Origin: a phage
Sequence record: PZ452595.1
Length of the DNA stretch: 64,000 nt
Direction: 5' to 3' (one strand)
Each line of letters begins with the position of its first letter. The stretch's first letter is position 1. The translations under genes and the position numbers were made by a program. Below the pieces are notes generated by a model that had not been told where the DNA came from, searched no databases, and saw only the letters and a program-made list of their open reading frames with translations. Positions 19,810 to 38,544 of this stretch are shown one piece after another.

Positions 19810-22800
19810 ATGGCCGAGATTAAAAGAAAGTTCAGAGCAGAAGATGGTCTGGACGCAGGTGGTGATAAAATAATCAACGTAGCTTTAGCTGATCGTGCCG
19901 TAGGAACTGATGGCGTTAACGTTGATTACTTAATTCAAGAAAACACAGTTCAACAATATGATCCAACTCGTGGATATTTAAAAGATTTTGTAATCATTTA
20001 TGATAACCGCTTTTGGGCTGCTATAAATGATATTCCAAAACCAGCAGGAGCTTTTAATAGCGTACGATGGAGAGCGTTACGTACTGATGCAAACTGGACA
20101 ACTGTTTCATCAGGACCTTATCAATTAAAATCGGGCGAATCAATTTCAGTTGATACTGCAGCTGGTAATGACATTACATTTACTTTACCATCTTCTCCAA
20201 TTGATGGTGATACCATCGTTCTCCAAGATATTGGAGGAAAACCTGGAGTTAATCAAGTTTTAATTACAGCTCCGGTACAAAGCATTGTAAATTTTAGAGG
20301 TCAGCAAGTACGTTCAGTACTAATGACTCATCCAAAATCACAGATAGTTTTAATTTTTAGTAATCGTCTGTGGCAAATGTATGTCGCTGATTATAGTAGA
20401 GAAGCTGTAGTTGTAACGCCTGCGAGTCTCTATCAAGCGCAATCAAACGATTTTATCGTACGTAGATTTACTTCTGCTGCACCAATTAATGTTAAACTTC
20501 CAAGATTTGCTAATCATGGAGATATTATTAATTTCGTCGATTTAGATAAACTAAATCCACTTTATCATACAATTGTTACTACATACGATGAAACGACTTC
20601 AGTACAAGAAGTTGGAACTCATTCCATTGAAGGCCGTACAACGATTGACGGTTTCTTGATGTTTGATGATAATGAGAAATTGTGGAGATTGTTTGACGGG
20701 GATAGTAAAGCGCGTTTACGCATTATAACGACTAATTCTAATATTCGTCCAAATGAAGAAGTTATGGTATTTGGCGCGAATAATGGAACAACCCAAACAA
20801 TTGAACTTCAGCTTCCAACTAATATTTCTGTTGGTGATACTGTTAAAATTTCCATGAATTACATGAGAAAAGGACAATCAGTTAAAATCAAAGCTGCAGG
20901 TGAAGATAAAATTGCTTCTTCAGTTCAATTGCTGCAATTCCCAAAACGCTCAGAATATCCACCTGAAGCTGAATGGGTAACAGTTCAAGAATTAGTTTTT
21001 AACGGTGAAACTAATTATGTTCCAGTTTTGGAGCTTGCTTATATAGAAGATTCTGATGGAAAATACTGGGTTGTACAACAAAACGTTCCAACTGTAGAAA
21101 GAGTAGATTCTTTAAATGATTCTACTAGAGCAAGATTAGGCGTAATTGCTTTAGCTACACAAGCTCAAGCAAATGCTGATTTAGAAAATTCTCCACAAAA
21201 AGAATTGGCAATTACTCCAGAAACGTTAGCTAATCGTACTGCTACAGAAACTCGTAGAGGTATTGCAAGAATAGCAACTACTGCTCAAGTTAACCAGGAT
21301 ACTACATTCTCTTTTGCTGATGATATTATCATCACTCCTAAAAAGCTAAATGAAAGAACAGCTACTGAAACTCGCAGAGGTGTTGCTGAAATTGCTACGC
21401 AGCAAGAAACTAATGCAGGAACCGATGATACTACAATCATTACTCCTAAAAAGCTTCAAGCTCGTCAAGGTTCTGAGTCATTATCTGGTATTGTAACTTT
21501 TGTATCTACTGCAGGTGCTACTCCAGCTTCTAGCCGTGAATTAAATGGTACGAATGTTTATAATAAAAACACTAATAATTTAGTTGTTTCACCTAAAGCT
21601 TTGGATCAGTATAAAGCTACTCCAACGCAACAAGGCGCAGTAATTTTAGCAGTTGAAAGTGAAGTAATTGCTGGACAGAGTCAAGAAGGATGGGCAAATG
21701 CGGTTGTAACGCCAGAAACGTTACATAAAAAGACATCAACTGATGCAAGAATTGGTTTAATTGAAATTGCTACGCAAAGTGAAGTTAATACAGGAACTGA
21801 TTATACACGTGCAGTCACTCCTAAAACTTTAAATGACCGTAGAGCAACTGAAAGTTTAAGTGGTATAGCTGAAATTGCTACGCAAGTTGAATTCGACGCA
21901 GGCGTCGACGATACTCGTATCTCTACACCATTAAAAATTAAAACCAGATTTAATAGTACTGATCGTACTTCTGTTGTTGCTCTATCTGGATTAGTTGAAT
22001 CAGGAACTCTCTGGGACCATTATACCCTTAATATTCTTGAAGCAAATGAGACACAGCGTGGTACACTTCGTGTAGCTACACAAGTCGAAGCTGCTGCAGG
22101 AACATTAGATAATGTTTTAATAACTCCTAAAAAGCTTTTAGGTACTAAATCTACTGAAGCACAAGAAGGTGTTATTAAAGTTGCAACTCAGTCTGAAACT
22201 GTGACTGGAACATCAGCAAATACTGCTGTATCTCCAAAAAATTTAAAATGGATCGTGCAGAGCGAACCTACCTGGGCAGCTACTACTCTAATAAGAGGTT
22301 TTGTTAAAACTTCATCTGGTTCAATTACGTTTGTTGGTAATGATACAGCTGGTTCAACACAGCCATTAGAATCATATGAGAAAAATGGTTATGCAGTATC
22401 ACCATATGAATTAAACCGTGTATTAGCAAATTATTTGCCATTAAAAGCAAAAGCTGTAGATAGTAATTTATTGGATGGTCTAGATTCATCTCAGTTCATT
22501 CGTAGGGACATTGCGCAGACAGTTAATGGTTCACTAACCTTAACCCAACAAACGAATCTGAGTGCCCCTCTTGTATCATCTAGTACTGCTACGTTTGGTG
22601 GTTCAGTTTCGGCAAATAGTGTACTAACTATTTCTAATACTGGAACAGAAACTCATCTGATTTTTGAGAAAGGACCTCAAACTGGAACTAACCAAGCGCA
22701 GACGGTGACTATTAGAGTGTGGGGTAATCAATTTAGTGGGGAATCAGATACAACACGTTCTACTGTATTTGAAGTTGGTGATGAAACGTCTAATCACTTT

Positions 22801-23679
22801 TATTCTCAGCGTAATAAAGCTGGAAATATAACATTTAATATCAATGGTACAGTAACACCTATAAATGTTAATGCTTCAGGAACATTGAATGCAAATGGTG
22901 TAGCAACATTTGGTAATTCAGTCACTGCAACTGGTGAAATTATTTCTCGAAGCGCAAATGCTTTCCGTGCTATTAACGGAAATTATGGTTTCATTGTTCG
23001 CAATGATGGATCAGTAACGAATTTTATGCTTACTGCATCGGGTGATCAAACTGGCGGATTTAATGGATTGCGTCCTTTAGCTATTAATAATGCATCTGGC
23101 CAAGTAACGATTGGCGAAAGCTTAATTATTGCCAAAGGTGCTACTATAAATTCAGGCGGTTTGACTGTTAACTCGAGAATTCGTTCTCAGGGTACTAAAA
23201 CATCTGATTTATATACACGCGCACCAACATCTGATACTGTAGGATTCTGGTCAATTGATATTAACGATTCAGCCACTTATAATCAGTTCCCGGGTTATTT
23301 TAAAATGGTTGAAAAAACTAATGAAGTGACTGGACTTCCATACTTAGAACGTGGTGAAGAGGTTAAATCTCCTGGTACATTGACTCAGTTTGGTAACACA
23401 CTTGATTCGCTTTACCAAGATTGGATTACTTATCCAACAACTCCAGAAGCGCGTACCACTCGTTGGACGCGTACATGGCAGAAAACTAAAAATTCTTGGT
23501 CAAGTTTTGTTCAGGTATTTGACGGAGGTAACCCTCCTCAGCCATCTGACATCGGTGCTTTACCATCTGATAATGCTATAATGGGTAATCTTACTATTCG
23601 TGATTTCTTACGAATTGGTAATGTTCGCATTATTCCTGACCCAGTGAATAAAACTGTTAAATTTGAATGGGTTGAATAA
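19810..23679 (+). CDS. 34: long tail fiber proximal subunit gp34
   Basis: 1289 aa, MAEIKRKFRAEDGLDAGGDKIINVALADR...; same length as T4 gp34; repeated ATP/ATQ beta-repeat segments. Confidence 0.96.
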   Translation: MAEIKRKFRAEDGLDAGGDKIINVALADRAVGTDGVNVDYLIQENTVQQYDPTRGYLKDFVIIYDNRFWAAINDIPKPAGAFNSVRWRALRTDANWTTVSSGPYQLKSGESISVDTAAGNDITFTLPSSPIDGDTIVLQDIGGKPGVNQVLITAPVQSIVNFRGQQVRSVLMTHPKSQIVLIFSNRLWQMYVADYSREAVVVTPASLYQAQSNDFIVRRFTSAAPINVKLPRFANHGDIINFVDLDKLNPLYHTIVTTYDETTSVQEVGTHSIEGRTTIDGFLMFDDNEKLWRLFDGDSKARLRIITTNSNIRPNEEVMVFGANNGTTQTIELQLPTNISVGDTVKISMNYMRKGQSVKIKAAGEDKIASSVQLLQFPKRSEYPPEAEWVTVQELVFNGETNYVPVLELAYIEDSDGKYWVVQQNVPTVERVDSLNDSTRARLGVIALATQAQANADLENSPQKELAITPETLANRTATETRRGIARIATTAQVNQDTTFSFADDIIITPKKLNERTATETRRGVAEIATQQETNAGTDDTTIITPKKLQARQGSESLSGIVTFVSTAGATPASSRELNGTNVYNKNTNNLVVSPKALDQYKATPTQQGAVILAVESEVIAGQSQEGWANAVVTPETLHKKTSTDARIGLIEIATQSEVNTGTDYTRAVTPKTLNDRRATESLSGIAEIATQVEFDAGVDDTRISTPLKIKTRFNSTDRTSVVALSGLVESGTLWDHYTLNILEANETQRGTLRVATQVEAAAGTLDNVLITPKKLLGTKSTEAQEGVIKVATQSETVTGTSANTAVSPKNLKWIVQSEPTWAATTLIRGFVKTSSGSITFVGNDTAGSTQPLESYEKNGYAVSPYELNRVLANYLPLKAKAVDSNLLDGLDSSQFIRRDIAQTVNGSLTLTQQTNLSAPLVSSSTATFGGSVSANSVLTISNTGTETHLIFEKGPQTGTNQAQTVTIRVWGNQFSGESDTTRSTVFEVGDETSNHFYSQRNKAGNITFNINGTVTPINVNASGTLNANGVATFGNSVTATGEIISRSANAFRAINGNYGFIVRNDGSVTNFMLTASGDQTGGFNGLRPLAINNASGQVTIGESLIIAKGATINSGGLTVNSRIRSQGTKTSDLYTRAPTSDTVGFWSIDINDSATYNQFPGYFKMVEKTNEVTGLPYLERGEEVKSPGTLTQFGNTLDSLYQDWITYPTTPEARTTRWTRTWQKTKNSWSSFVQVFDGGNPPQPSDIGALPSDNAIMGNLTIRDFLRIGNVRIIPDPVNKTVKFEWVE

Positions 23680-23687
23680 GAGGTATT

Positions 23688-24803
23688 ATGGAAAAATTTA
23701 TGGCAGAGTTTGGACAAGGATACGTCCAAACGCCATTTTTATCGGAAAGCAATTCAGTAAGATACAAAATAAGTATAGCGGGTTCTTGCCCGCTTTCTAC
23801 CGCAGGACCATATGTTAAATTTCAGGATAATCCTGTAGGAAATCAAACATTTAGCGCAGGTCTTCATTTAAGAGTTTTTGATCCTTCTACAGGAGCATTA
23901 GTTGATAGTAAGTCATATGCTTTTTCTACTTCAAATGATACTACATCAGCTGCTTTTGTTAGTTTCATGAATTCTTTGACAAATAATAGAATTGTTGCTA
24001 TATTAACTAGCGGAAAGGTTAATTTTCCTCCTGAAGTAGTATCTTGGTTAAGAACCGCCGGAACGTCTGCTTTTCCATCTGACTCTATATTGTCAAGATT
24101 TGATGTATCATATGCTGCTTTTTATACTTCTTCTAAAAGAGCTATTGCATTAGAGCATGTTAAATTAAGTAATAGAAAAAGCACAGATGATTATCAAACT
24201 ATTTTAGATGTTGTATTTGACAGTTTAGAAGACGTTGGAGCTACCGGGTTTCCAAGAAGAACATATGAAAGCGTTGAGCAGTTTATGTCAGCGGTTGGTG
24301 GAACTAATAACGAAATTGCACGTCTACCAACTTCATCCGCGATAAGTAAACTTTCTGACTACAATTTAATTCCTGGCGATGTTCTTTATCTTAAAGCACA
24401 ACTATATGCTGATGCCGATTTACTTGCTCTTGGAACTACGAATATATCCATTAGATTTTATAATGAATCGGATGGATATATTTCTTCAACACATGCTGAG
24501 TTTACTGGTCAAGCTGGGTCATGGGAATTAAAGGAAGACTATGTAGTTGTTCCTGAAAATGCGGTAGGATTTACGATATATGCACAAAGAACTGCCCAAG
24601 CAGGTCAAGGAGGCATGAGAAATTTAAGCTTTTCTGAAGTATCAAGAAATGGCGGCATTTCAAAACCTGCTGAATTCGGCGTCAATGGTATTCGTGTTAA
24701 TTATATCTGTGAATCTGCTTCACCTCCGGATATAATGGTACTTCCTACACAAGCATCGTCTAAAACTGGTAAAGTGTTTGGGCAAGAATTTAGAGAAGTT
24801 TAA
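23688..24803 (+). CDS. 35: long tail fiber hinge protein gp35
   Basis: 371 aa, starts 9 nt after the gp34 stop with AAGAGG upstream; length matches T4 gp35. Confidence 0.92.
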   Translation: MEKFMAEFGQGYVQTPFLSESNSVRYKISIAGSCPLSTAGPYVKFQDNPVGNQTFSAGLHLRVFDPSTGALVDSKSYAFSTSNDTTSAAFVSFMNSLTNNRIVAILTSGKVNFPPEVVSWLRTAGTSAFPSDSILSRFDVSYAAFYTSSKRAIALEHVKLSNRKSTDDYQTILDVVFDSLEDVGATGFPRRTYESVEQFMSAVGGTNNEIARLPTSSAISKLSDYNLIPGDVLYLKAQLYADADLLALGTTNISIRFYNESDGYISSTHAEFTGQAGSWELKEDYVVVPENAVGFTIYAQRTAQAGQGGMRNLSFSEVSRNGGISKPAEFGVNGIRVNYICESASPPDIMVLPTQASSKTGKVFGQEFREV

Positions 24804-24808
24804 ATTGA

Positions 24809-24834
24809 GGGAGCCTTCGGGTTCCCTTTTTCTT
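24809..24834 (+). terminator. stem-loop with U-run after gene 35
   Basis: GGGAGCC-UUCG-GGUUCCC followed by UUUUUCUUU. Confidence 0.55.
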
Positions 24835-24842
24835 TATAAATA
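24835..24842 (+). promoter_or_regulatory. late promoter for genes 36-37-38
   Basis: Exact TATAAATA 24 nt upstream of the gene 36 ATG. Confidence 0.6.
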
Positions 24843-24865
24843 CTATTAAAATAAAGGGGCATACA

Positions 24866-25522
24866 ATGGCTGATTTAAAAGTAGGTTCAACAACCGGAGG
24901 CTCTGTCATTTGGCATCAAGGAAATTTTCCATTGAATCCAGCCGGTGACGATGTACTCTATAAATCATTTAAAATATATTCAGAATATAATAAACCACAA
25001 GCTGCTGATAACGATTTCGTTTCTAAAGCTAATGGCGGTACTTATTTAAATAAAGTAATTTTTAATAAAGGAATGACTGTTCCTGGCGCAGGGTCAGGTG
25101 ATAATGGTATTTTTGCTGGTCCTGGTGATAGTGCCACGTATGATACTACAAATATGGATATTGTTTCGTGGTATGGTATTGGTTTTAAATCATCACAAGG
25201 AACAGCAGGTAGAACTGTAGTAATTAACACACGAAATGGAGATATTAGCTCAAAGGGCGTAATTGAAGCATCACAAATCCGTGTAACTTCGTTATCACCA
25301 GTAAATAATTATGACCTTACGCGGAAAGATTATGTTGATGGAGCAATAAATATTGTTACAGCAAACGCAAACTCTAGGGTATTACGCTCTGGAGACACTA
25401 TGATAGGAAATTTAACTGCGCCAAACCTTTTTTCACAGAATCCTGCATCTCAACCCTCGCATGTTCCACGATTTGACCAAATTGTTATTAAGGATTCTGT
25501 TCAAGATTTCGGCTATTATTAA
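24866..25522 (+). CDS. 36: long tail fiber proximal connector gp36
   Basis: 218 aa, ATG start; length and position match T4 gp36. Confidence 0.92.
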   Translation: MADLKVGSTTGGSVIWHQGNFPLNPAGDDVLYKSFKIYSEYNKPQAADNDFVSKANGGTYLNKVIFNKGMTVPGAGSGDNGIFAGPGDSATYDTTNMDIVSWYGIGFKSSQGTAGRTVVINTRNGDISSKGVIEASQIRVTSLSPVNNYDLTRKDYVDGAINIVTANANSRVLRSGDTMIGNLTAPNLFSQNPASQPSHVPRFDQIVIKDSVQDFGYY

Positions 25523-25530
25523 GAGGACTT

Positions 25531-28500
25531 ATGGCTACTTTAAAACAAATACAATTTAAAAGAAGCAAAACTGCAGGAGCACGTCCTGCCGCTTCAGTAT
25601 TAGCCGAAGGTGAATTGGCTATAAACTTAAAAGACCGTGTACTTTTTACTAAAGATGACCAAGGAAATATTATTGATCTGGGTTTTGCTAAAGGCGGTAG
25701 TATTGACGGGAATGTTATTCATACAGGCAATTATAACCAAACTGGCGATTATACTTTAAATGGTGTCTTCACTCAGACTGGTAATTTTAATTTAACTGGT
25801 ATTGCTCGAGTAACTCGCGATATTATTGCCGCTGGGCAGATTATGACTGAAGGCGGAGAACTTATTACAAAAAGTTCAGGTACAGCGCATGTTCGTTTTT
25901 TCGATAACAATAGTCGCGAACGCGGAATCATTTATGCCCCGGCTAATGATGGTTTAACTACACAAGTACTTAATATCAGGGTTCAAGACTACGCCGCTGG
26001 TAGCGAAAGCACTTATGCATTTTCAGGCAGTGGACTATTTACTTCACCTGAAGTATCAGCATGGAAATCTATTTCGTCTCCACAAATTCTGACCGACAAA
26101 GTTATTACAAATGGGAAGAAGACGGGAGATTATGACATTTATTCTATGGCAGACAACGTTCCATTGTCTGAAAGCACTACTGCTATTAATCATCTCCGTG
26201 TTATGCGCAATGCTGTAGGCGCTGGTGTATTCCATGAAGTTAAAGATAATGATGGAATAACTTGGTATACTGGAGATGGCTTAGACACTTATCTTTGGTC
26301 GTTTACCTGGACCGGTGGATTGAAAGCAGGCCATTCTATTTCTGTTGGTACTCCTGGTGGCAATAAAGGATACTCTGAATTAGGGACTGCTTCAATTTCT
26401 CTTGGCGATAATGATACCGGGCTAAAATGGCATCAGGACGGATATTTCTATACAGTAAACAACGGAACAAGAACTTTCATCTATGGTCCAGGAGAAACGC
26501 AAAGCCTTAGAAAAATGGTTATGGCTTATTCTCCAGATGGGCTTCTTATGACAACGCCACCGACAGAAAACTATGCTTTGGCTACTGTTGTTACTTACCA
26601 TGATAATAACGCATACGGTGACGGTCAAACTCTTTTAGGATATTATCAAGGCGGTAACTATCATCATTATTTTCGCGGTAAGGGTACTACAAACATTAAT
26701 ACTCACGGCGGTTTGTTAGTTACTCCTGGTAATATTGACGTTATTGGTGGTTCTGTTAATATCGATGGTAGAAATAATGCTTCTACACTGATGTTTAGAG
26801 GTAACACAACTGGTAGTAGTTCAGTTGATAATATGACAATTTCCGTTTGGGGCAATACGTTTACTAATCCTAGTGTAGGTAATCGTAAAAACGTCATGGA
26901 AATTTCTGATGCAACTAGCTGGATGAGTTATATTCAAAGACTTACAACAGGTGAAGTAGAAATGAACGTTAACGGTTCATTTGAATCATCTGGTGTTACT
27001 GCTGGAAATAGAGGAGTTCACACAACGGGCGAAATTTCATCTGGGGCTGTGAATGCGCTTCGTATTTGGAACGCAGATTATGGAGCTATTTTTAGACGTT
27101 CAGAAGGTAGTCTTCATATTATTCCAACTGCTTATGGTGAAGGTAAACATGGTGATATCGGCCCACTTCGCCCGTTTAGTATGGCTTTAGATACCGGTAA
27201 AGTTACTATTCCAGATTTACAATCAAGTTACAATACGTTCGCAGCGAACGGCTATATTAAATTTGTTGGTCATGGAGCGGGTGCCGGCGGTTATGACATT
27301 CAATATGCTCAAGCGGCTCCTATTTTCCAGGAAATTGATGATGATGCTGTAAGCAAATATTATCCTATTGTTAAACAGAAGTTTTTAAATGGTAAAGCCG
27401 TTTGGTCTTTAGGTACTGAAATTAATTCGGGTACATTCGTTATTCATCATCTGAAAGAAGATGGATCACAGGGCCATACATCAAGATTTAATGCTGATGG
27501 TACAGTTAATTTCCCCGATAACGTTCAGGTCGGCGGCGGTGAAGCTACTATTGCTCGCAATGGTAATATTTTCTCAGATATTTGGAAATCGTTTACTTCT
27601 GCGGGAGACACTACAAATATTCGCGATGCGATAGCTACTCGTGTTGCCAAAGAAGGCGATACGATGACCGGTAGGTTGACTTTATCTGCTGGAAATGATG
27701 CCCTTGTTTTAACTGCGGGCGCTGGCGCTTCATCGCACATCCGTAGTGATGTAGGTGGTACAAATAATTGGTATATAGGCAAAGGCGGCGGCGACAATGG
27801 TCTAGGTTTTTACAGTTACATTACACAAGGCGGTGTATACATAACAAATAACGGCGAAATAGCGCTTTCTCCTCAAGGACAAGGAACATTTAATTTTAAT
27901 AGAGACCGCCTTCATATAAACGGTACACAATGGACTGCGCACCAGGGTGGTGGCTGGGGAAACCAATGGAATCAAGAAGCTCCGATATTTATAGATTTTG
28001 GTAATGTTGGTAATGATAGTTATTATCCTATTATTAAAGGAAAATCTGGTATTACTAATGAAGGATACATATCTGGCGTTGATTTTGGTATGCGACGCAT
28101 TACTAATAACTGGGCGCAAGGTATTATTCGTGTAGGTAACCAGGAAAATGGTTCTGATCCACAAGCTATCTATGAATTTCATCACAATGGAGTTCTGTAT
28201 GTTCCTAACATGGTTAAAACTGGAGCAAGATTATCAGCTGGCGGTGGTGACCCGGTGTGGCAAGGCGCATGCGTTGTTATTGGTGATAATGATACTGGAT
28301 TAGTTCATGGTGGTGATGGACGAATTAATATGGTTGCAAATGGAGTTCATATTGCTTCATGGTCTTCATCTTATCATTCTCATCCAGGCCTTTGGGATTC
28401 AAACGGAGCTTTGTGGACAGAAGTTGGCAAAGCAATTATTTCTCATGGTCATTTAGTTCAGGCGAATGACAGCTATTCAACGTTTGTCCGTGATGTTTAT

Positions 28501-28842
28501 GTCCGCTCTGATATTCGTGTTAAAAAAGACCTCGTTAAATTTGAAAATGCTTCTGAAAAGCTTTCTAAAATTAACGGTTACACTTATATGCAGAAACGTG
28601 GAACTGACGAAGAAGGTAATCAGAAATGGGAACCTAACGCCGGTTTAATTGCTCAAGAAGTTCAAGCTATTTTACCAGAATTAGTTGAAGGCGACCCGGA
28701 TGGTGAAGCTTTACTTCGTTTGAACTATAACGGTGTAATTGGTTTAAATACAGCTGCAATCAATGAGCATACTGCAGAAATTGCGGAACTTAAATCAGAA
28801 ATTGAAGAACTTAAAGCATTAGTTAAATCATTGTTAAAATAA
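25531..28842 (+). CDS. 37: long tail fiber distal subunit gp37 with C-terminal intramolecular chaperone module
   Basis: 1103 aa, AAGAGGA upstream; the C-terminal ~110 aa begin at an S|DIRVKKDL motif and end in a coiled-coil heptad segment. Confidence 0.95.
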
Positions 28843-28847
28843 TAAGA

Positions 28848-28861
28848 GGGGCTTCGGCCCC
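28848..28861 (+). promoter_or_regulatory. intercistronic hairpin between genes 37 and 38
   Basis: GGGGC-UUCG-GCCCC immediately followed by the gene 38 SD GGAGG; no U-run. Confidence 0.4.
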
Positions 28862-28873
28862 TTGGAGGTTTAT

Positions 28874-29650
28874 ATGGCAGTAACAGGACCGTGGGTAGGA
28901 TCGTCTGCAGTAGTTAATACAGGACAAAATTGGATGGGTGGTGCCGCGCAGAGATTGAGAATGGGAATTCCGTTTTGGATGAGTAATATGATAGGTCGAT
29001 CTGTTGAAATAATTCACACGCTTGGAGCAGACCATAACTTCAATGGTCAATGGTTCCGAGATAGATGTTTTGAGGCAGGTAGTGCACCTATAGTGTTTAA
29101 TATCACTGGAGATTTAGTATCATATTCTAAAGATGTTCCTTTATTCTTCATGTATGGAGATACACCCAATGAATATGTTCAGTTGAATATACACGGCGTA
29201 ACGATGTATGGTCGTGGCGGTAATGGCGGTAGCAATAGTCCTGGCTCAGCTGGAGGTCATTGTATTCAAAACGATATTGGTGGGAGACTAAGAATTAATA
29301 ATGGTGGAGCTATTGCAGGCGGCGGTGGCGGCGGTGGCGGCGGATATTATTCTCCTTTTTCACAAATGAGATTGACCTTTGGCGGCGGCGGTGGGCGTCC
29401 GTTTGGTGCACCTGGCGGATCTATTGATATGCAATCAGGAGCGACTGGCGGTACTATTTCTGCACCTGGCTCAGGATCCGTGAATGGTATCTATAATGGT
29501 GGAAACGGTGGTGAAGTAGGTTCCGCGGGAGGTAGATGCAATATTCGCGGTCAAGGATCTGAATATAATGGCGGCGATGCTGGTTATGCCGTCATAGGGT
29601 CCGCTCCAACGTGGATAAATGTTGGAGCAATATATGGTCCAAGAGTATAA
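28874..29650 (+). CDS. 38: gp38 receptor-binding adhesin, T2-type with polyglycine motifs
   Basis: ATG at 28874 with GGAGG 5 nt upstream (258 aa; the track frame adds 4 codons from a TTG); C-terminal half has Gly runs ([20 protein letters not shown]) separating short variable segments. Confidence 0.88.
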
Positions 29651-29680
29651 TTTGAATAAATATCCTTAAAAGGAGGGTCT

Positions 29681-30337
29681 ATGGCAGCACCTAGAATATC
29701 ATTTTCGCCCTCTGATATTCTGTTTGGTGTTCTAGATCGCTTGTTCAAAGATAACGCTACCGGGAAAGTTCTTGCTTCCCGGGTAGCTGTCGTAATTCTT
29801 TTATTTATGATGGCGATTGTTTGGTATAGGGGAGATAGTTTCTTTGAGTACTATAAGCAATCAAAGTATGAAACATACAGTGAAATTATTGAAAAGGAAA
29901 GAAATGCACGCTTTGAATCTGTCGCCCTGGAACAACTCCAGATAGTTCATATATCATCTGAGGCAGACTTTAGTGCGGTGTATTCTTTCCGCCCTAAAAA
30001 CTTAAACTATTTTGTTGATATTATAGCATATGAAGGAAAATTACCTTCAACAATAAGTGAAAAATCACTTGGAGGATATCCTGTTGATAAAACTATGGAT
30101 GAATATGCAGTTCATTTAAATGGACGTCATTATTATTCCAACTCAAAATTTGCTTTTTTACCAACTAAAAAGCCTACTCCCGAAATAAACTACATGTACA
30201 GTTGTCCATATTTTAATTTGGATAATATCTATGCTGGAACGATAACCATGTACTGGTATAGAAATGATCATATAAGTAATGACCGCCTTGAATCAATATG
30301 TGCTCAGGCGGCCAGAATATTAGGAAGGGCTAAATAA
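29681..30337 (+). CDS. t: holin T
   Basis: 218 aa, MAAPRISFSPSDILFGVLDRLFKD...; single N-terminal TM segment and large periplasmic domain; AAGGAGGG upstream; same length as T4 holin. Confidence 0.93.
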   Translation: MAAPRISFSPSDILFGVLDRLFKDNATGKVLASRVAVVILLFMMAIVWYRGDSFFEYYKQSKYETYSEIIEKERNARFESVALEQLQIVHISSEADFSAVYSFRPKNLNYFVDIIAYEGKLPSTISEKSLGGYPVDKTMDEYAVHLNGRHYYSNSKFAFLPTKKPTPEINYMYSCPYFNLDNIYAGTITMYWYRNDHISNDRLESICAQAARILGRAK

Positions 30338-30610
30338 TTATTTGTTCGTATACATCTCTAGATATCGATATACACCCTCAAAACCCTCGTTGAATTCGTC
30401 GATGAGGGTTTTCTTATCTTCCTGAGTTAATTCAGAAACAATTTTACGGAATGAATTCTGATTTAACTTTCTACCTTCATGCGTTACTCCAATCTCATTC
30501 AGAAATGCAATAAAATTAGCACGATTTTCAACAATATCTTCTCTGGAAAATTTAATCAAAATAGACGCAACAGTAATAATTTCACGAACTGTATCAATGT
30601 TTTTATTCAT
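30338..30610 (-). CDS. asiA: anti-sigma70 factor AsiA
   Basis: 90 aa, MNKNIDTVREIITVASILIKFSREDIVENRANFIAFLNEIG...; matches T4 AsiA; convergent with t. Confidence 0.95.
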   Translation of the reverse strand: MNKNIDTVREIITVASILIKFSREDIVENRANFIAFLNEIGVTHEGRKLNQNSFRKIVSELTQEDKKTLIDEFNEGFEGVYRYLEMYTNK

Positions 30611-30622
30611 TAACTATACCAC

Positions 30623-30775
30623 TCAATTAGTTGACTTTGTTATAATATCATCAGACGCTTGATTTGTAAACTGGTCTGTGTTATTTTCTTCAAAAATTTT
30701 TTCTACGAATTCCTTGAACGACTCACGTTCCTGAGCTACATTGTGCTCGATTACCTTTTCAAGATTATGACTCAT
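30623..30775 (-). CDS. small hypothetical protein (asiA.1 position), not in ORF track
   Basis: 50 aa hand-translated (MSHNLEKVIEHNVAQERESFKEF...); its ATG overlaps the arn stop codon (ATGA). Confidence 0.4.
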   Translation of the reverse strand: MSHNLEKVIEHNVAQERESFKEFVEKIFEENNTDQFTNQASDDIITKSTN

Positions 30776-31050
30776 TCGAAATAATCTTCAATTTCGTAAT
30801 CATGGACATAAATCATTATAGTTTTTAATACATCATCAATACTTTTTCCTGGAGCTGGAATTACGTAAAAATATCCTACTTTTGAGAGGTCTTTATAAGT
30901 TCCAATTAAGAAATCGTTATTCTCAAGATGTAGTTCTTCAACTAATTCATTGACAATTGAATGGTATAGATTTGGTAGAAACTTATATAGCTTTTCTAGA
31001 ATATCAATTTTGATTGTGTATTGAACCACGGATTGAGAATCAATAATCAT
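30772..31050 (-). CDS. arn: anti-restriction nuclease Arn (McrBC inhibitor)
   Basis: 92 aa, ATG start; length and position next to asiA match T4 arn. Confidence 0.85.
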   Translation of the reverse strand: MIIDSQSVVQYTIKIDILEKLYKFLPNLYHSIVNELVEELHLENNDFLIGTYKDLSKVGYFYVIPAPGKSIDDVLKTIMIYVHDYEIEDYFE

Positions 31051-31133
31051 AGACCTTCCCCTTATGTTTCTGTTTGCGATTAGATTCTTTAAACGCTTTC
31101 TTCTTATCCTTATGAACAGAAGCTTTATTAAAA

Positions 31134-31352
31134 TTATGTTTTGCGACTAAATTGTTCATAGTGCTGAATTACCTCTCTCAAACATTTGCATGTGAATGAA
31201 AACTTTTTAGCTACACCACATTCAAATATATGTTCTCTTAAATCACATGTATCGGTATATCCCATCTCAACAATAAAATGCCGTATTAGATTTTTATCTT
31301 TATCATTGAGAGAATTAAAATAATCAGATTTTGAATTAATTTCCCTGGCCAA
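31134..31352 (-). CDS. small Cys-rich hypothetical protein, start uncertain
   Basis: First ATG at 31265 gives 43 aa (…CDLREHIFECGVAKKFSFTCKCLRE…); the 72-aa track frame needs a TTG start. Confidence 0.3.
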   Translation of the reverse strand: MAREINSKSDYFNSLNDKDKNLIRHFIVEMGYTDTCDLREHIFECGVAKKFSFTCKCLREVIQHYEQFSRKT

Positions 31353-31632
31353 ATTGAATCACCTTCAGTTGACGTTTTAGTTCTTTTATCATCTCTTCGT
31401 TCATTGCAATATAAAGATCGCGTAGAGCAGGTTTTAGCATTCCATTTACCGGAGAACTAAATGGGCATACATAATCTTTTCCTACGAGCTTTTTAGTGAA
31501 TTCCATATCACAGAACTTAAATCCCGGCTCATTGGTATAAATTCCCCAATTGGTTGACATCATTTTATTAGCATATTCCAGTGCCTGGATTTGATTCATA
31601 ATTCCATCAATTTGAAACTTTTTAATATTCAT
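31336..31632 (-). CDS. hypothetical protein (arn.x block)
   Basis: 98 aa, ATG start. Confidence 0.5.
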   Translation of the reverse strand: MNIKKFQIDGIMNQIQALEYANKMMSTNWGIYTNEPGFKFCDMEFTKKLVGKDYVCPFSSPVNGMLKPALRDLYIAMNEEMIKELKRQLKVIQFGQGN

Positions 31633-32093
31633 TAGTAAAGGTCCTCAGAGTAAAGTTCTTTTTCACTACCACCACGTTCAATACGTACTTGTCCAGCGTA
31701 AGTTGCAATAATCATTGCTTCTTCACGTGTCCAATAATTACTATATTGGTCAATAAACCCTTGGTCATCATCACAAACTTGTTGAGTAACTAATTGAGGT
31801 TTAACTACATCTAAAACTTCTGCCATATCTTTAGAATAATGACGAGCACCTGGAATAATAAGAGTTCGTCCATCTTTTAATTTAAAACGGTTGGCTGCAC
31901 AAACAATTCGTCGTTGATACTTTTGGTTTTCATCCCAATACGCAGTCTGCCAACAGATTTCAGGAACTTCATCTAAAACATTTTGTTCTGTATATTCACC
32001 ACCGTAAGAAGCTAATTTAGCAGCCAGACTTTCCGGAGTCTCACGCGACAAAGCTTTATCTAACAGAGCTAAACGTTCTTTAAAAGTTTTCAT
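31632..32093 (-). CDS. hypothetical protein (arn.x block)
   Basis: 153 aa, ATG start, overlaps neighbours by 1-4 nt. Confidence 0.55.
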
Positions 32094-32419
32094 TTAAACC
32101 ATCCTTTAATACGTTGCCACAAAGTTTTCTGCTGAGCTTTGTTAACACCAATTGAGCGAATAACTGGTTGAGATTCCTGGAATTCTTTATAATCAGCAAG
32201 ATAAATTTCGTAAGCTGCATCCGTAAATGAACTTATCGCTGCCATAAAATTATTGCGAATACCTACTGGAGCATCTTTACTTTCACGAATAATCATGTAT
32301 TTACCAGTCTTAATCTTTACGATAGTTCCAAGATAAGCTCCATGATACCAGATGTCCCACCCCTCTTGAGTGGGTTCTGCGCAACGACGAAGTTCATTAA
32401 CAATTTCTAACTTGTTCAT
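32090..32419 (-). CDS. hypothetical protein (arn.x block)
   Basis: 109 aa, ATG start. Confidence 0.5.
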
Positions 32420-32429
32420 TATTTATTCC

Positions 32430-33065
32430 TCACAGTTCAGATGCTACAGTGATTACTGCTTCAATGTTTTCTGCCGAGCGTTTAATGTCAAGATACACAT
32501 TACCGTTTTTAGCGATTTTACATGACATTCCAATATCAGTAAATTTCTGAATATGATGTTCCATCATTTTGTATCCAAAAATTCGCATATTTCCATTGTT
32601 GTTAATTTCAAAATTACGAATTCCGTGAGTACGTTTTTCTAAAATAGCGAGATAGTTACTACGATAAGTTTCAACCTTTTTAAGAACAAATCCATTTTCA
32701 TCTAAAAGTTTTAACATGAAGTCTTTATCTTCTTCCATATCGGAAGTAATTTCGCGAGCTTTACGAGTTGCTCGTTTTTTCAGCAGTTCCGGAGCATTTT
32801 CTTGTGCGTATAAAGTTGCTGCATTTGAAATAATATCCTGAGCTTCGCCTGTAATGATTAATCCATCACCAGATTTCTCTACCAGGCCTTTTTTAATCAA
32901 TACCCCAATATTACTATTAACTACTGCGTTACCTAAATCTGGATGCACTTCACGAACTTCTGCAGCTGTAATGAAATCTTTCTTAGCAATAGTAATTAAA
33001 ATCGCAGCAGTTTTTTCATTCAGAACATCGTTAGAAGCTTTGATGATGTAAGTTACTTTAGACAT
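32430..33065 (-). CDS. motA: MotA middle-transcription activator
   Basis: 211 aa, MSKVTYIIKASNDVLNEKTAAILITIAKK...; length and position next to gene 52 match T4 MotA. Confidence 0.92.
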   Translation of the reverse strand: MSKVTYIIKASNDVLNEKTAAILITIAKKDFITAAEVREVHPDLGNAVVNSNIGVLIKKGLVEKSGDGLIITGEAQDIISNAATLYAQENAPELLKKRATRKAREITSDMEEDKDFMLKLLDENGFVLKKVETYRSNYLAILEKRTHGIRNFEINNNGNMRIFGYKMMEHHIQKFTDIGMSCKIAKNGNVYLDIKRSAENIEAVITVASEL

Positions 33066-33106
33066 TTTCTAATCTCCGTAATTCTGTATCAGTAGTTGAT
33101 AGTTGT

Positions 33107-33135
33107 ATAGTACCACAGTATGCTTTGGTTGTAAA
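33107..33135 (-). promoter_or_regulatory. T4-type early promoter upstream of motA
   Basis: Minus sense GTTTACA, 17-nt spacer, TGG-TACTAT, followed by the conserved CAACTACTGATAC leader. Confidence 0.6.
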
Positions 33136-33161
33136 CCGTTTTGTGAAAAATTTTTGAAATA

Positions 33162-33187
33162 AAAAAGGGAGAGCCGAGGCTCTCCCT
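33162..33187 (-). terminator. rho-independent terminator downstream of the 52 / motA.1 unit
   Basis: Stem GGGAGAGC / GCTCTCCC with 4-nt loop, then U-run in minus sense. Confidence 0.6.
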
Positions 33188-33191
33188 AAAA

Positions 33192-33341
33192 TTACTGCTC
33201 GAACGCGATAACTATCGTGATAACACGTTGAATTCCGAACGCAAGAAGACCTCCTGCTACGGCTGGAACAACGCCTAAACCCGCCAGTAAAATGCTACCG
33301 GATACTAATGCAGCGCTTGTAATACCAATGAATGGACTCAT
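33192..33341 (-). CDS. small membrane protein (motA.1 position), not in ORF track
   Basis: 49 aa hand-translated (MSPFIGITSAALVSGSILLAGLGVVPAVAGG...), hydrophobic; ATG overlaps the gene 52 stop (ATGA). Confidence 0.45.
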   Translation of the reverse strand: MSPFIGITSAALVSGSILLAGLGVVPAVAGGLLAFGIQRVITIVIAFEQ

Positions 33342-34666
33342 TTGATTTCCTCTAAATCTTTAGTGTATTCAGTAACTACATCAGTAGTTTTCCAATATTC
33401 ATTTTCTTCTTTTTTAGCTTTAGCTTCTTCAGCAAGTTTCTTTGCTTCATCGGAAGTCATATGAAAAATATTCATTCCAACTAGTTTATCAACATAAGAA
33501 GAATACATATCGATTTTCGAAAGTTCTTCGGTCAGTTCTTTACGAGTTTTACCCTGCACAACAATTTCACCTGAAATTACTTTCTTAATGAAATGTGCCT
33601 TGGCAAAGGCTAAACGAAAAGCTGACTCAGTTTCTTTAATTTTGTTATCAATTCGTTTTTGGACATAAGTTTTACGAACTTCAACGAAGTCTTTAATTAA
33701 ATCAACCACGTTATCGTAAACTTGTAGTTTTCCTTTCTCATTAATAACCGTAATATTCTGAGAACGACGCTCAATCAACCCGAAGTCTTTCATAATTTTT
33801 GCATGGCGTTCTTCTTCGTTATCGCTCAAAGAGTATTCTTTGCGGAATTTAACTTTGAAGCCAAAACCATGCTCACCACAAGCATCATCCCATGTAATGA
33901 AGCCTTTATCTTCAAGTGGGTCTAAGATTTTACTCACGTAAGTTTCACGATCATACTTATACGGAATCTCAGTGATATGCATTTGAGTTCGTGAAGTAAA
34001 CTTATATGTTCCACGAATTTCATATTGCCCATCAATTTCAACGACTTCACCACGAAATTCTGGGAATTCTACCTTCGGTTTAGTTACTTTCTTTCCTTGA
34101 AGAGCTTGTAGTACAGCTTTCTTGACAGAAGAAACACTATGAGGAAGAATGTAAGTTGCATAACCAGTTGCAATACCGGAAACGCCATTAAGAAGAACAG
34201 TAGGAATAATAGGCAAATAGAAAGCAGGCGGAATGTGTTCTTTATCTTGATGTACTGGAGCATATTCAGTATCTTTATATACGTTATAGAAATTTTTACT
34301 TACACGAGCAAAAATATAACGACTTGCCGCTGCCTTTTGGACAGTACGAGAACCGAAGTTTCCTTGACCATCTAACAGAGGAAAGTTATTATTCCAAGTG
34401 TTAGCCATCAAAGCTCCCGCATCTTGCGCAGAGTTTTCGCCATGGTGATATCCAAGGTCCGCTACACCACCTGCAATAGAAGCGAGTTTGTGAAACTTAT
34501 CTTTATTTCCTCGTGCCAAATCAAGAGCTCGAGCAATAACAAATCGTTGAACTGGCTTAAATCCATCAATCATATTTGGAATGGCACGATTTTCAACCGT
34601 GTACATAGCATAAGCCAATGCTTCATTATCAATGATACTTTTTAAATCGCGATTATTCAGTTGCAT
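33338..34666 (-). CDS. 52: topoisomerase II medium subunit gp52
   Basis: 442 aa, ATG start; GyrA-like N-terminal region; same length as T4 gp52. Confidence 0.95.
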   Translation of the reverse strand: MQLNNRDLKSIIDNEALAYAMYTVENRAIPNMIDGFKPVQRFVIARALDLARGNKDKFHKLASIAGGVADLGYHHGENSAQDAGALMANTWNNNFPLLDGQGNFGSRTVQKAAASRYIFARVSKNFYNVYKDTEYAPVHQDKEHIPPAFYLPIIPTVLLNGVSGIATGYATYILPHSVSSVKKAVLQALQGKKVTKPKVEFPEFRGEVVEIDGQYEIRGTYKFTSRTQMHITEIPYKYDRETYVSKILDPLEDKGFITWDDACGEHGFGFKVKFRKEYSLSDNEEERHAKIMKDFGLIERRSQNITVINEKGKLQVYDNVVDLIKDFVEVRKTYVQKRIDNKIKETESAFRLAFAKAHFIKKVISGEIVVQGKTRKELTEELSKIDMYSSYVDKLVGMNIFHMTSDEAKKLAEEAKAKKEENEYWKTTDVVTEYTKDLEEIK

Positions 34667-34670
34667 AAAT

Positions 34671-34811
34671 TTACCATACTAGTGAATGTAGTGCCATAAT
34701 AACATCAGAAATGAAAAGCACGACTTGAATTAATCCGAACATTACTCCATAATATAGTGCTACCAATAAAGTAGCAAGGGCTAATGAATAGCCCAAGATT
34801 TTCTTAATCAT
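34671..34811 (-). CDS. small membrane peptide upstream of gene 52, not in ORF track
   Basis: 46 aa hand-translated (MIKKILGYSLALATLLVALYYGVMFGLIQVVLF...), two hydrophobic segments. Confidence 0.4.
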   Translation of the reverse strand: MIKKILGYSLALATLLVALYYGVMFGLIQVVLFISDVIMALHSLVW

Positions 34812-34971
34812 TAGTAGATAACAACACAAATGTTAAATATGCACACATACCCTGGGCTAAAGCTTGTGAAAACACACTGCTAGCATCGATCAGATAGTTA
34901 AAACACATGCTACTATCCAACAAATAAATGAAATAACTCCTAATAATTTTGCGATATTCATAATATTCTCC

Positions 34972-35127
34972 TCAACTATTTTTAGAACCAATGTACGCGA
35001 ATAATGATAAAATCGCTAATACGCCCTGAGCTGATGCTTGTAAAAATACTGAAGTTTCTCCAGTTATTACTGTTCCGATGCATAAAAAGAACCAACAGAA
35101 AAAGGCTATACCGTGAACAAATTTCAT
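34972..35127 (-). CDS. small membrane peptide, not in ORF track
   Basis: 51 aa hand-translated (MKFVHGIAFFCWFFLCIGTVITGETSVFLQ...); GAGGA 6-8 nt upstream of ATG. Confidence 0.4.
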   Translation of the reverse strand: MKFVHGIAFFCWFFLCIGTVITGETSVFLQASAQGVLAILSLFAYIGSKNS

Positions 35128-35214
35128 ATTTTCCTCACTGGCGTCCGAAGACGCCTTTGGTTTTAAGATTGTTACGATAGAACTGCATCACATGTTCGTT
35201 ATGGAAATTACTCA

Positions 35215-35658
35215 TTAATATGCCTGCAAAACAAATTTAAAGTTATCAGCCAACATACGGTTCATTTCTTCAAGTGTTTGATACTCAGAATGATGATTAC
35301 GAGTAAACGCCAAAGCTAACTGACCTTTTCCAAATCCCGTCGTCAGAGGTTTCATCTTAGAAGCAGGCAGATAAAACACTGCGTATACCATATTGTTATT
35401 TGCAATAGTACGCGCAAGTTGAGACCGGCGTTGACGAATATGACTTAGAACTGCACTGAATCCTTGCTTAGAACGCTGATTACCTACATAAAATCGTGCA
35501 GATACGCATGAACCATCGAATTCACTTACTAAAAAGTAAAATCCAGGTTTAGACAAAATGTCTTTATGCGGAGTTCCCAAAAACCATTCACCACCCTTGA
35601 TTGTACCAATAACAGTAGCGCCTGCATCATTCAGATCAGTAACAGTCATATATTTCAT
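35215..35658 (-). CDS. ndd: nucleoid disruption protein Ndd
   Basis: ATG at 35658 preceded by GAGGA gives [28 protein letters not shown]... (147 aa); track start is upstream non-ATG. Confidence 0.75.
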
Positions 35659-35718
35659 ATTAATTTCCTCTAAATTATTTTCTACTCCAAGGCCGCATGA
35701 ATACACACGGCCATTAAA

Positions 35719-35934
35719 TTAATCGTCGCAGTCGACGCTCAATTCCCAAAACTCTTCTACAGTATAAGTTTCAGTATCATTTTCAATACAGAAACGTTCA
35801 TTACTATTATTTTCTAAAGTAGCGTTAACTGTCATTTTCTCGCTAGTGCTCTTAAGAGGTGAAATACGAATTAACTGATCACCGTTATCTAAACAAAAAA
35901 TTTCACCAACTTTTACATCTTTAAAGATTTTCAT
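35719..35934 (-). CDS. hypothetical protein
   Basis: 71 aa, ATG start. Confidence 0.5.
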   Translation of the reverse strand: MKIFKDVKVGEIFCLDNGDQLIRISPLKSTSEKMTVNATLENNSNERFCIENDTETYTVEEFWELSVDCDD

Positions 35935-36049
35935 AATTCACCTCAGGGAGTATAAAATCCAAACGCAGTTGTTGACCATCCCATCCAATACGGAAAATTT
36001 GCACCAATGTAAAACATAAGAATATAAAACCAACCGCTCAGCAAATTCA

Positions 36050-36247
36050 TCATTTTACACCGTTCCAAATTGTTTCAACCACAGATTTTAAACCATTTTG
36101 ATGAATATCAATTCCGACTACTGTCATCAAATAGATTCCAACTACAACTGAACCTAAGGCAAAAATCAGCATGAAAATGAATAAAGCCGGAAAAATATTA
36201 TCGAAAAACCATTCAATAAATGTAAAAGCACTGCGTTTACGCTTCAT
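36050..36247 (-). CDS. small membrane protein
   Basis: ATG at 36247 preceded by GAGGA (65 aa); one long hydrophobic segment. Confidence 0.45.
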   Translation of the reverse strand: MKRKRSAFTFIEWFFDNIFPALFIFMLIFALGSVVVGIYLMTVVGIDIHQNGLKSVVETIWNGVK

Positions 36248-36254
36248 ATTTTCC

Positions 36255-36368
36255 TCACATAAATCCAAAGTAAACGTTTAATACATCAATCATTAAAACG
36301 ATTGGGAATATACTCAAAACTATTAGTATTATAACTACATTCCATATAGCTTTAACAATCTTTTTCAT
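36255..36368 (-). CDS. small membrane peptide
   Basis: ATG at 36368 preceded by GGAGG (37 aa, MKKIVKAIWNVVIILIVLSIFPIVL...); track frame extends through the promoter. Confidence 0.4.
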   Translation of the reverse strand: MKKIVKAIWNVVIILIVLSIFPIVLMIDVLNVYFGFM

Positions 36369-36396
36369 TTTCTGTTCCTCCGTAGTTGATAGGGTA

Positions 36397-36425
36397 ATAG
36401 TACCACGGAAGAACAGTCTTGTAAA
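36397..36425 (-). promoter_or_regulatory. T4-type early promoter
   Basis: Minus sense GTTTACA, 17-nt spacer, TGG-TACTAT; leader CTATCAACTACGGAGGAACAGAAA-ATG nearly identical to the one at 63208..63231. Confidence 0.55.
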
Positions 36426-36684
36426 CAACTTTTTAAAAATATTCGTAATAAATGTGAATACCAACTACTACCGCTGAAACTTGCACAACCCACCACGCAC
36501 AAGCAATAAGTACAGAATTCAAAATTTTCATAATAACCTCATTACAAAAGTAAATGTTAAACAAATTACTGGAATACTAATTAACCAAACAAAACACCAC
36601 CACAGTGAACTCATAGTTCAATCTCAGCGATTTTCATTTTATTCTCCAAATCCGTATCAGTAGTTGTCAGTAGTTGATAGTTGT

Positions 36685-36713
36685 ATAGTACCACGGTCCT
36701 TGTGGTATGTAAA
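36685..36713 (-). promoter_or_regulatory. T4-type early promoter downstream of denB
   Basis: Minus sense GTTTACA, 17-nt spacer, TGG-TACTAT; tandem duplication of CAGTAGTTG in the leader. Confidence 0.5.
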
Positions 36714-36729
36714 CCATTTTGTGAAATTT

Positions 36730-37287
36730 TTAAATGGAAAGATACCATCCGTTGTAGTTGCTTTTTCTTACAACCTTACGAAGGTCTTCTCTATCACCGA
36801 TGAACTTCGGAGTGTACTGGATGACACCTGGATGAATTTCTTTAGTGTTGAATATAATTATACAGTCAGCGACTTGATGATTTAGAATGGGCCCTAGATT
36901 TATTCCAGAACCGTATGGATACTCTCCGCTGCATCCTGTTGTTACAGAAATCCAACGTGAGTCAGTTTGATGTGTCTTAACTTCTACACGAAGCCCGCAG
37001 TATTTTGGATGCGCCAATACATCCCATGCATATGTGTACGGATCATCGACATCTTCTTGGCCTTTATTGACATATCCGCTTAGCCAATCTGCCACAAAAA
37101 ACTCTGCGTACACAGCGATACGGCATCTTTCGATAACTTCTGCCTTATCCTGATTTGGGTTCTGTTTTAAAGAGTATCTTGCAGTATCAGCAATTTTGAC
37201 CTTCATTTCACTAGTCAAGTCACTGTTCGATAGGGTAAATGTCGGAATCTGAAACAGTCTCTGTAAACCCGGATTCGTTTTCTGCAT
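36730..37287 (-). CDS. denB: endonuclease IV
   Basis: 185 aa, ATG start; same length and position (between rIIB and ndd) as T4 denB. Confidence 0.8.
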   Translation of the reverse strand: MQKTNPGLQRLFQIPTFTLSNSDLTSEMKVKIADTARYSLKQNPNQDKAEVIERCRIAVYAEFFVADWLSGYVNKGQEDVDDPYTYAWDVLAHPKYCGLRVEVKTHQTDSRWISVTTGCSGEYPYGSGINLGPILNHQVADCIIIFNTKEIHPGVIQYTPKFIGDREDLRKVVRKSNYNGWYLSI

Positions 37288-37344
37288 TTAAACTTTCCTT
37301 TTATGTCGGAATCACCGATATTCATATAAATCATAATTTCTCTT

Positions 37345-37366
37345 AAAACAAAAGGGCCGAAGCCCC
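37345..37366 (-). terminator. rho-independent terminator
   Basis: GGGC-UUCG-GCCC stem-loop followed by UUUUGUUUU in minus sense, between the 64-aa ORF and denB. Confidence 0.5.
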
Positions 37367-37371
37367 TTATT

Positions 37372-37566
37372 TTACTTGAATTGTGCAATTCTTTTCTCTA
37401 GACATTCAGCATAAGATTTCATTGAGATAAACTGCGAAAGTAACAGTTCTTGCTCAACTGCATTAACTGTTAGAAACTTTGCGCTTTCTAAAAATTTGCT
37501 CAGTGCATTAATTTTGAGCATTAATTGATCGTATTCTTCTTTTACTCGTGCTTGATAACCTAACAT
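37372..37566 (-). CDS. hypothetical coiled-coil protein (denB.1 position)
   Basis: 64 aa, ATG start preceded by AAGGAAAA. Confidence 0.5.
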   Translation of the reverse strand: MLGYQARVKEEYDQLMLKINALSKFLESAKFLTVNAVEQELLLSQFISMKSYAECLEKRIAQFK

Positions 37567-37594
37567 AATTTTCCTTAGTTAAGGGCCGAAGCCC

Positions 37595-38533: not shown

Positions 38534-38544
38534 AATTTTCCTTA

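Follow-up and report, generated by a model that had tools for sequence, protein, structure and literature searches.

The question raised by gene 38 in a 64,000-nucleotide stretch of phage DNA (sequence record PZ452595.1; hereafter the window) is whether its product is an assembly chaperone, like the T4 protein of the same name, or a receptor-binding adhesin, and, if the latter, which receptor it would recognize and whether the glycine-codon repeats in its distal half make it prone to change. A first-pass annotation, drawn up from the letters alone, had called the protein a T2-type polyglycine adhesin with repeats liable to slippage. The explanation that best fits the analysis, and that is very probably right, is a Tequatrovirus adhesin of the T6/FL23 type with Tsx as its predicted receptor and glycine repeats of constrained length. 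In gp38 of the adhesin class, a monomer sits at the fibre tip, the glycine-rich motifs (GRMs) build a polyglycine-II (PGII) sandwich and the hypervariable segments (HVSs) are the receptor-binding loops (PMC3157838, PMC6851490, PMC12892980).

The gene is a real open reading frame, starting with the ATG at 28874 and ending with the TAA at 29648-29650 (Table 1). An ORF listing opens it at an upstream TTG at 28862; the homologues as annotated use the ATG, which is preceded by a GGAGG Shine-Dalgarno sequence at 28864-28868. All four peptide motifs quoted in the first-pass annotation are present verbatim in the translation, at residues 149-157 and 170-178 and as GATGG (189-193) and GGNGGE (209-214). 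Glycine makes up 34% of residues 113-258 compared with 12% of residues 1-112, and the glycine columns show no variation in 64 homologues; such a richness in glycine is not a chance feature. Across the 64 sequences, conservation of the GRM columns is 90% or higher, up to full invariance, and the HVS columns hold 14-19 types; this alternation, together with the glycine content, bears out the earlier reading of the C-terminal half as glycine runs separating variable segments. The beta-helix core is modelled at pLDDT above 90 and is 86-100% identical to most homologues from E. coli phages, and the region of GRM5 and the C-terminal strands conserves G237, A239, V240, G242, P245, W247, G251 and I253-G255. 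The loop definition for PP01 gp38 was taken from PMC12892980.

Table 1. Coordinates of gene 38, its parts and its neighbours in the window
Feature	Coordinates	Strand	Basis or remark
gp37 distal long-tail-fibre subunit, 1103 aa	25531..28842	+	Peptidase_S74 Pfam match, residues 993-1052 (nt 28507-28686)
GC-rich UUCG-loop hairpin (GAGGGGC-UUCG-GCCCCUU)	28846..28863	+	Between gp37 double stop and gp38 Shine-Dalgarno
gp38 receptor-recognising adhesin CDS	28874..29650	+	Pfam and PDB matches, ORF; 258 aa plus stop
N-terminal attachment domain, residues 1-40, with W7, W20, W35	28874..28993	+	Pfam Gp38_N; docking to the gp37 trimer tip predicted
Conserved beta-helix core, residues 45-112	29006..29209	+	Pfam GP38 spans residues 45-258
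GRM1 GRGGNGG, residues 113-119	29210..29230	+	G113, R114, G115, G116 and G118 invariant in 64 sequences
HVS1 SNSPGSA, residues 120-126, = PP01 gp38 loop A	29231..29251	+	Alignments; T6 and FL23 identical
GRM2 nine-glycine run, (GGC GGC GGT)x2 GGC GGC GGA	29318..29344	+	Sequence, TRF
HVS2, residues 158-169, = loop B	29345..29380	+	FL23 identical; T6 one difference (S163P)
GRM3 GGGGGRPFG, residues 170-178	29381..29407	+	Five Gly before RPFG in homologues
HVS3, residues 179-208, contains GATGG, = loops C and D	29408..29497	+	FL23 identical; T6 two differences
GRM4 GGNGGEVG, residues 209-216	29498..29521	+	G210, G212, G213 and G216 at least 90% conserved
HVS4, residues 217-236, = loop E, holds D235	29522..29581	+	Alignment
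GRM5 and conserved C-terminal strands, residues 237-258	29582..29647	+	Conserved columns
Holin t, canonical neighbour downstream of gene 38	29681..30337	+	Pfam Phage_holin_T, 5.9e-117

The family of the protein is defined by two Pfam matches, GP38 (PF05268; 3.2e-71, 240.1 bits against a cut-off of 25, residues 45-258) and Gp38_N (PF21721; 1.4e-21, 76.6 bits, cut-off 25, residues 1-40), and sequence comparison with the PDB returned the PP01 gp38 RBD (9V85, 1.1e-78) and S16 gp38 (6F45_D, 7e-53). An AlphaFold2 model built with 64 homologues reached pLDDT 88.3 and pTM 0.81, with only pLDDT 54-68 for the N-terminal 40 residues. Comparison of this model with the PDB found only 9V85_C (TMt 0.88, rmsd 2.3 A) and 6F45_D (TM 0.78-0.81), the next match having E = 2, and the predicted structure has the three domains of these adhesins: a helical attachment bundle, a beta-helix and a polyglycine-II sandwich. 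The tryptophans of the attachment domain are conserved in 64 (W7), 63 (W20) and 57 (W35) of the 64 homologues; the S16 attachment domain docks into gp37 via three tryptophans (PMC6851490, which is also the CASP13 account of 6F45). In family, fold, motifs, tryptophans and gp37 context the protein is a gp38 adhesin of the T2/T6/S16 type, as the first-pass annotation had held against a T4-like chaperone. Its label "T2-type" stands at the level of the class, similarity to T2-type adhesins being present both in the Pfam matches and in 47% identity to T2 gp38; by sequence the protein is T6/FL23-like.

A T4-type gp38, that is an assembly chaperone absent from the virion, is suggested by a gene name and position like those of T4 gene 38 and by some homologue records that read "distal long tail fiber assembly catalyst", but it can be set aside with near certainty, as the sequence family, the fold and the partner gp37 are all adhesin-type, the Pfam GP38/Gp38_N and 9V85/6F45_D matches rule out membership, and "assembly catalyst" is a legacy T4 label borne even by the T6 adhesin.

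Location at the virion tip and a requirement in adsorption have been established for gp38 of T6, T2/K3 and S16 (Trojet 2011, PMC3157838; PMC6851490), and T6 phages with an amber mutation in gene 38 have normal morphology and do not adsorb (Trojet 2011, PMC3157838). By analogy, gp38 of the window would be a virion protein that caps gp37. The gene order gp35-gp36-gp37-gp38-t-asiA is that of T6, T2 and FL23, and also of vB_Eco_CP, and residues 912-1103 of gp37 match the S16 gp37 tip (6F45_A, 5e-44), which is capped by gp38 in 6F45. The pairing of gp38 with gp37 is drawn from this S16-like match only, since the N-terminal module differs in subtype from that of T6.

Near the distal fibre genes the sole plus-strand copy of the T4 late-promoter consensus TATAAATA is located at 24835-24842, just upstream of gp36, and none was found between gp36 and holin t. 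This single consensus upstream of gp36 suggests that genes 36, 37 and 38, perhaps with t, are co-transcribed. A dedicated late promoter or terminator for gene 38 was considered and rejected, as TATAAATA is absent from gp36 to t and the hairpin ahead of gene 38 has no T tail on the plus strand. The 60-nt context of this hairpin folds at -17.8 kcal/mol (z -2.3), and the hairpin, which is terminator-like on the minus strand, could be an RNA-stability or translational-coupling element. As a separate observation, the fibre hinge protein gp35 (23688-24803) has a Pfam match to ILEI, an interleukin-like EMT inducer (PF15711, 1.1e-8, residues 58-126).

In the proposed mechanism, one gp38 monomer would cap the distal-fibre tip of the gp37 trimer via its N-terminal three-tryptophan helical bundle, and gp37 itself would fold assisted by the Peptidase_S74 chaperone at its C-terminus. 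The remainder of gp38 would form a small beta-helix with two extensions that make up a three-layer polyglycine-II lattice, with the GRMs as lattice struts and the HVSs as distal loops contacting the outer-membrane protein. The glycine-codon repeats would then be a by-product of coding glycine runs of structurally fixed length.

The first-pass annotation had described these repeats as (GGC GGT)n at 29320..29345 and as obvious substrates for slippage. A repeat tract does exist, but it lies at 29318-29344 and does not alternate; TRF reads it as a 9-bp unit, GGCGGCGGT, in 2.9 copies with 100% matches (score 52), compared with only 82% matching as a 3-bp repeat. The longest perfect triplet run of the gene is (GGC)3 and its longest G homopolymer is three, and gene 38 thus holds no long perfect tandem tract of the slippage type.

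Homologues were surveyed as 120 protein cluster representatives (1872 member sequences), 109 of them full-length, together with 24 CDSs. A scan of IMG/VR with the gp38 alignment gave 16 loci, too few for a DNA-level survey, and tblastn against the phage collection, which ends most matches near residue 140 because the low-complexity filter masks the glycine-rich half, was not used for the HVSs. No polymorphism in repeat number was seen among close relatives: exactly five glycines precede RPFG in GRM3 of all 109 full-length homologues, and in 107 of them the GRM2 block, counted as xIx and nine further positions, has no gap. The length of the G-run in GRM2 ranges from 4 to 9, mostly through substitutions at its end positions, as in T2 (GGGGGGGAA), PP01 (G8-Y) and others (VIC-G8-I). 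The nine-glycine run of seven alleles (the window, L001, L002, L003, L005, L006 and L007) is written in at least five synonymous codon patterns; the 9-bp periodicity is not conserved among relatives, whereas the codon number is. In a megablast search, 39 of the 40 best phage records aligned over a span equal in length to the query.

The GRM2 run is equivalent to the long central PGII helix 3 of S16 gp38, which is part of a hydrogen-bonded lattice; this helix is GGGGGGGG, residues 151-158 (PMC6851490). Deletion in T6 of GRM2, GRM3, GRM4, HVS1, HVS2 or HVS3 gave no viable phage, with 48 and 220 progeny screened (Trojet 2011).

A hypermutable slippage repeat that diversifies the adhesin by gain and loss of glycines could draw on the perfect 9-bp tandem repeat and on two singleton representatives in which GRM2 is shorter by an indel (P0070 by three codons, P0113 by five). 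It is nevertheless highly improbable, in view of the constancy of GRM3 and the near absence of indels in GRM2, the G-run differences that are mostly end substitutions in an ungapped block, the synonymous drift at a constant nine codons, the equal spans in the best phage matches, the shortness of perfect triplet and G runs, the packing of GRM2 as a PGII helix and the non-viability of the GRM deletions in T6. On/off switching is in any case impossible, as the repeat unit is a multiple of three. The claim of an obvious slippage substrate is not supported, given the fixed tract length, the synonymous drift, the limit of three triplets and the T6 deletions. The glycine-codon repeats are neither a programmed nor an evidently active hypermutable tract; rather than a generator of diversity, they would encode structurally constrained struts. 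Taken with the S16 structure and the T6 deletions, the comparison of homologues shows no sign of slippage-driven variation and a GRM run length that is under purifying selection.

The codon usage of the glycine runs deserves mention in its own right. Runs of at least four glycines in 24 alleles use GGC (45%), GGT (47%), GGA (5%) and GGG (2%), and the glycine codons of the window's other ORFs are GGT (49%), GGA (29%), GGC (16%) and GGG (6%). Of the 14 codons in the runs of the window itself (29318-29344 and 29381-29395), 9 are GGC (binomial P = 8e-5). Avoidance of GGA and GGG in such runs would prevent Shine-Dalgarno-like GGAGG sequences and G homopolymers.

For the receptor, the closest relatives are informative. 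At the nucleotide level the gene shows 100% identity to its counterparts in the Escherichia phages EPIMRB01 and AUBRB02 and 99.4-99.5% identity to those in ESh32, ESh34 and vB_Eco_CP, and its protein is 97% identical to gp38 of FL23, 87% to T6, 69% to the PP01 RBD, 51% to S16 and 47% to T2. Alignment with gp38 adhesins of known specificity, a check that had been proposed with the first reading, found the T6/FL23 (Tsx) loop set: HVS1-4 are all of the T6 type that marks the Tsx subgroup, the sole difference from FL23 over residues 48-258 is D235A, and about five loop differences separate the same residues from T6 (S163P, D185N, A197S, N232D and D235A). Since this loop set is that of T6 and FL23, the nucleoside channel Tsx is the predicted primary receptor of gp38. 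Tsx is the receptor of T6, and phages that bind Tsx have essentially a single HVS set in common (Trojet 2011, PMC3157838); on MG1655 deleted for tsx, the plating efficiency of FL23 and FL44 drops by 3 logs or more (Lutz et al. 2025, PMC12032242). The paper on EPIMRB01 identifies no receptor and mentions neither gp38 nor Tsx.

Binding to some other receptor, or to Tsx and a second molecule such as OmpA or LPS, as in PST, is unlikely, yet it has some grounds in the sensitivity of gp38 specificity to changes in a few residues. PST gp38 is few residues off T6, yet OmpA is also needed (PMC3157838), and a 2026 preprint reports both that porin specificity follows HVS alleles across 54 gp38 adhesins and that Q206L in RB68 gp38 switches the receptor from OmpF to OmpW. 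Because one substitution in an HVS can be enough to switch or widen the specificity of gp38, D235 or differences elsewhere in the phage could modify receptor use; D235A sets this gp38 apart from FL23, and Shigella and Yersinia served as isolation hosts for very close relatives. On the other hand, each of the four HVSs belongs to the Tsx type and matches FL23 exactly save at D235, this residue lies on the C-terminal side of the stretch that aligns with PP01 loop E, and the T6-like allele of phage phiS (P0006) also has D at position 235. Tsx is retained as the predicted receptor, and the call also predicts loss of tsx as the likely route of host resistance and shows which phages would duplicate one another in a cocktail.

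By sequence comparison gp38 is a mosaic, with an attachment module (28874-29005) shared with alleles of unrelated HVSs and a specificity part (29006-29647) that is T6/FL23-like. Residues 1-44 show 100% identity to alleles whose HVSs are wholly different (P0008, P0011, P0033-P0041) and 59-61% identity to T6-type alleles having the window's HVSs, and many phages match the gene from nucleotide 81 onward only, at 94-97% identity. Module shuffling was assessed in 109 sequences, coarsely, by clustering the modules at 70% identity and counting quartets in which all four combinations of two types occur. The N-terminal attachment module against any HVS gave 16-38 such quartets, whereas pairs among HVS1-4 gave 0-1. 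Re-assortment of HVSs across the GRMs was thus not detected in the 109 sequences at 70% clustering, a resolution at which rare events may escape notice, and since the HVS pairs give 0-1 quartets, natural shuffling across GRMs is rare at this resolution. Natural modular exchange in gp38 would mainly re-pair a fibre-attachment module with an intact specificity module.

A further alternative is that the glycine tracts act as micro-homology, either for shuffling of HVS cassettes (Tetart 1998 / Trojet 2011) or for deletion between tracts; this is doubtful, but has more in its favour than slippage. GRM2 and GRM3 have an 11-nt sequence in common, GGCGGCGGTGG, which occurs at 29318, 29327 and 29384 in the glycine runs of the window. 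Intragenic gp38 recombinants have been obtained in laboratory crosses (Trojet 2011, PMC3157838), and in one engineered swap of the 2026 preprint the exchange covered HVS2 onwards only. Set against this are the quartet counts, which place the exchange at the attachment module, and the extent of exact nucleotide matches to alleles with other HVSs, at most 134 nt in the beta-helix core (gene nucleotides 95-290) and at most 20 nt at the glycine tracts. Because matches in the core reach 134 nt compared with 20 nt or fewer at the tracts, the useful homology for recombination would be the conserved core and not the glycine repeats.

Deletion between tracts has its own record in rare alleles. Seven cluster representatives, about 9 of the 1872 members (about 0.5%) and from metagenome or other public assemblies, have in-frame losses. 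Five of them have lost a segment adjoining or between the tracts: P0004, P0009, P0030 and P0114 are without the segment between GRM2 and GRM3, and P0108 is without HVS2 plus GRM3. The other two are the GRM2 indels of P0070 and P0113. The losses (L021-L026) amount to 3 to 22 or more codons, in frame. At the four loci where junctions were read in the DNA (L021-L024; three alleles, P0004, P0030 and P0114), all lie inside GGC/GGT runs, the pattern expected of micro-homology deletion, and reads across the junctions probably exist, because the 11-nt shared sequence is too short for k-mer collapse.

The genomic setting of these alleles weighs on the other side. On the contig of L021 (Logan SRR30543803) gp37 is shortened to 477 aa, the gene in L024 is split into 46-aa and 194-aa products, and the contigs L022 and L023 measure about 1 kb each. 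Since deletion of HVS2 in T6 is non-viable, the deletion alleles most probably represent defective genomes or artefacts of the library, and there is little chance that those without the GRM2-to-GRM3 segment are real, replicating variants. If they were, micro-homology deletion between glycine tracts would give loop-deleted adhesins with altered or relaxed specificity, and would contradict the non-viability of the HVS2 deletion in T6. The earlier idea of the tracts as recombination substrates therefore stands in part: gp38 recombination is published and rare deletion junctions lie in the tracts, but in the homologues compared here the visible junction is between the N-terminal module and the rest, HVS1-4 remain linked, and the deletion alleles are the sole hint in favour of the tracts.

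Over 20000-40000 of the window, no phage record has at least 99% identity across 20 kb, the best being about 95% (ESh32, NiC89); it appears that the fibre-tip gene is common to otherwise diverged genomes or that the source genome is absent from the collection.

Gp38 of the window is a textbook T-even adhesin of the T6/Tsx subtype, already known and with identical genes in GenBank, and its analysis poses no new question for specialists. Its practical value lies in annotation, as the identical genes of EPIMRB01 and AUBRB02, annotated "hypothetical protein", can be renamed Tsx-type gp38 adhesin. Many adhesin-type gp38 genes, that of T6 included, still bear the label "distal long tail fiber assembly catalyst" or "chaperone" after the unrelated T4 gp38.

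Among the known systems, gp38 of FL23 and FL44 is nearest, sharing the length of 258 aa, the N-terminal subtype and the gene order, and differing by about seven substitutions in the attachment domain, I47V and D235A (95.2% nucleotide identity). T6 gp38 shares all four HVSs, apart from about five substitutions, and has identical GRMs, including the nine-glycine run; its N-terminal domain is of another subtype, with 59% identity over residues 1-44 and a 2-residue indel, and its gp37 has 994 aa compared with 1103 aa here. The attachment module of the window's gp38 is S16/K3-like, and the gp37 tip resembles S16 gp37. PP01 gp38, an OmpC binder, and S16 gp38 have the attachment bundle, beta-helix and PGII sandwich that are predicted here, but carry other loops, and their long run has eight glycines as against nine, the ninth being replaced by another residue, not lost. 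T2 gp38, the FadL/OmpF adhesin, agrees in family, architecture and gene position, but differs in every HVS and in GRM2. T4 gp38, the fibre assembly chaperone, is alike in gene name and locus only and is an unrelated protein, and receptor binding in T4 falls to the gp37 tip itself (PMC6851490, PMC3157838).
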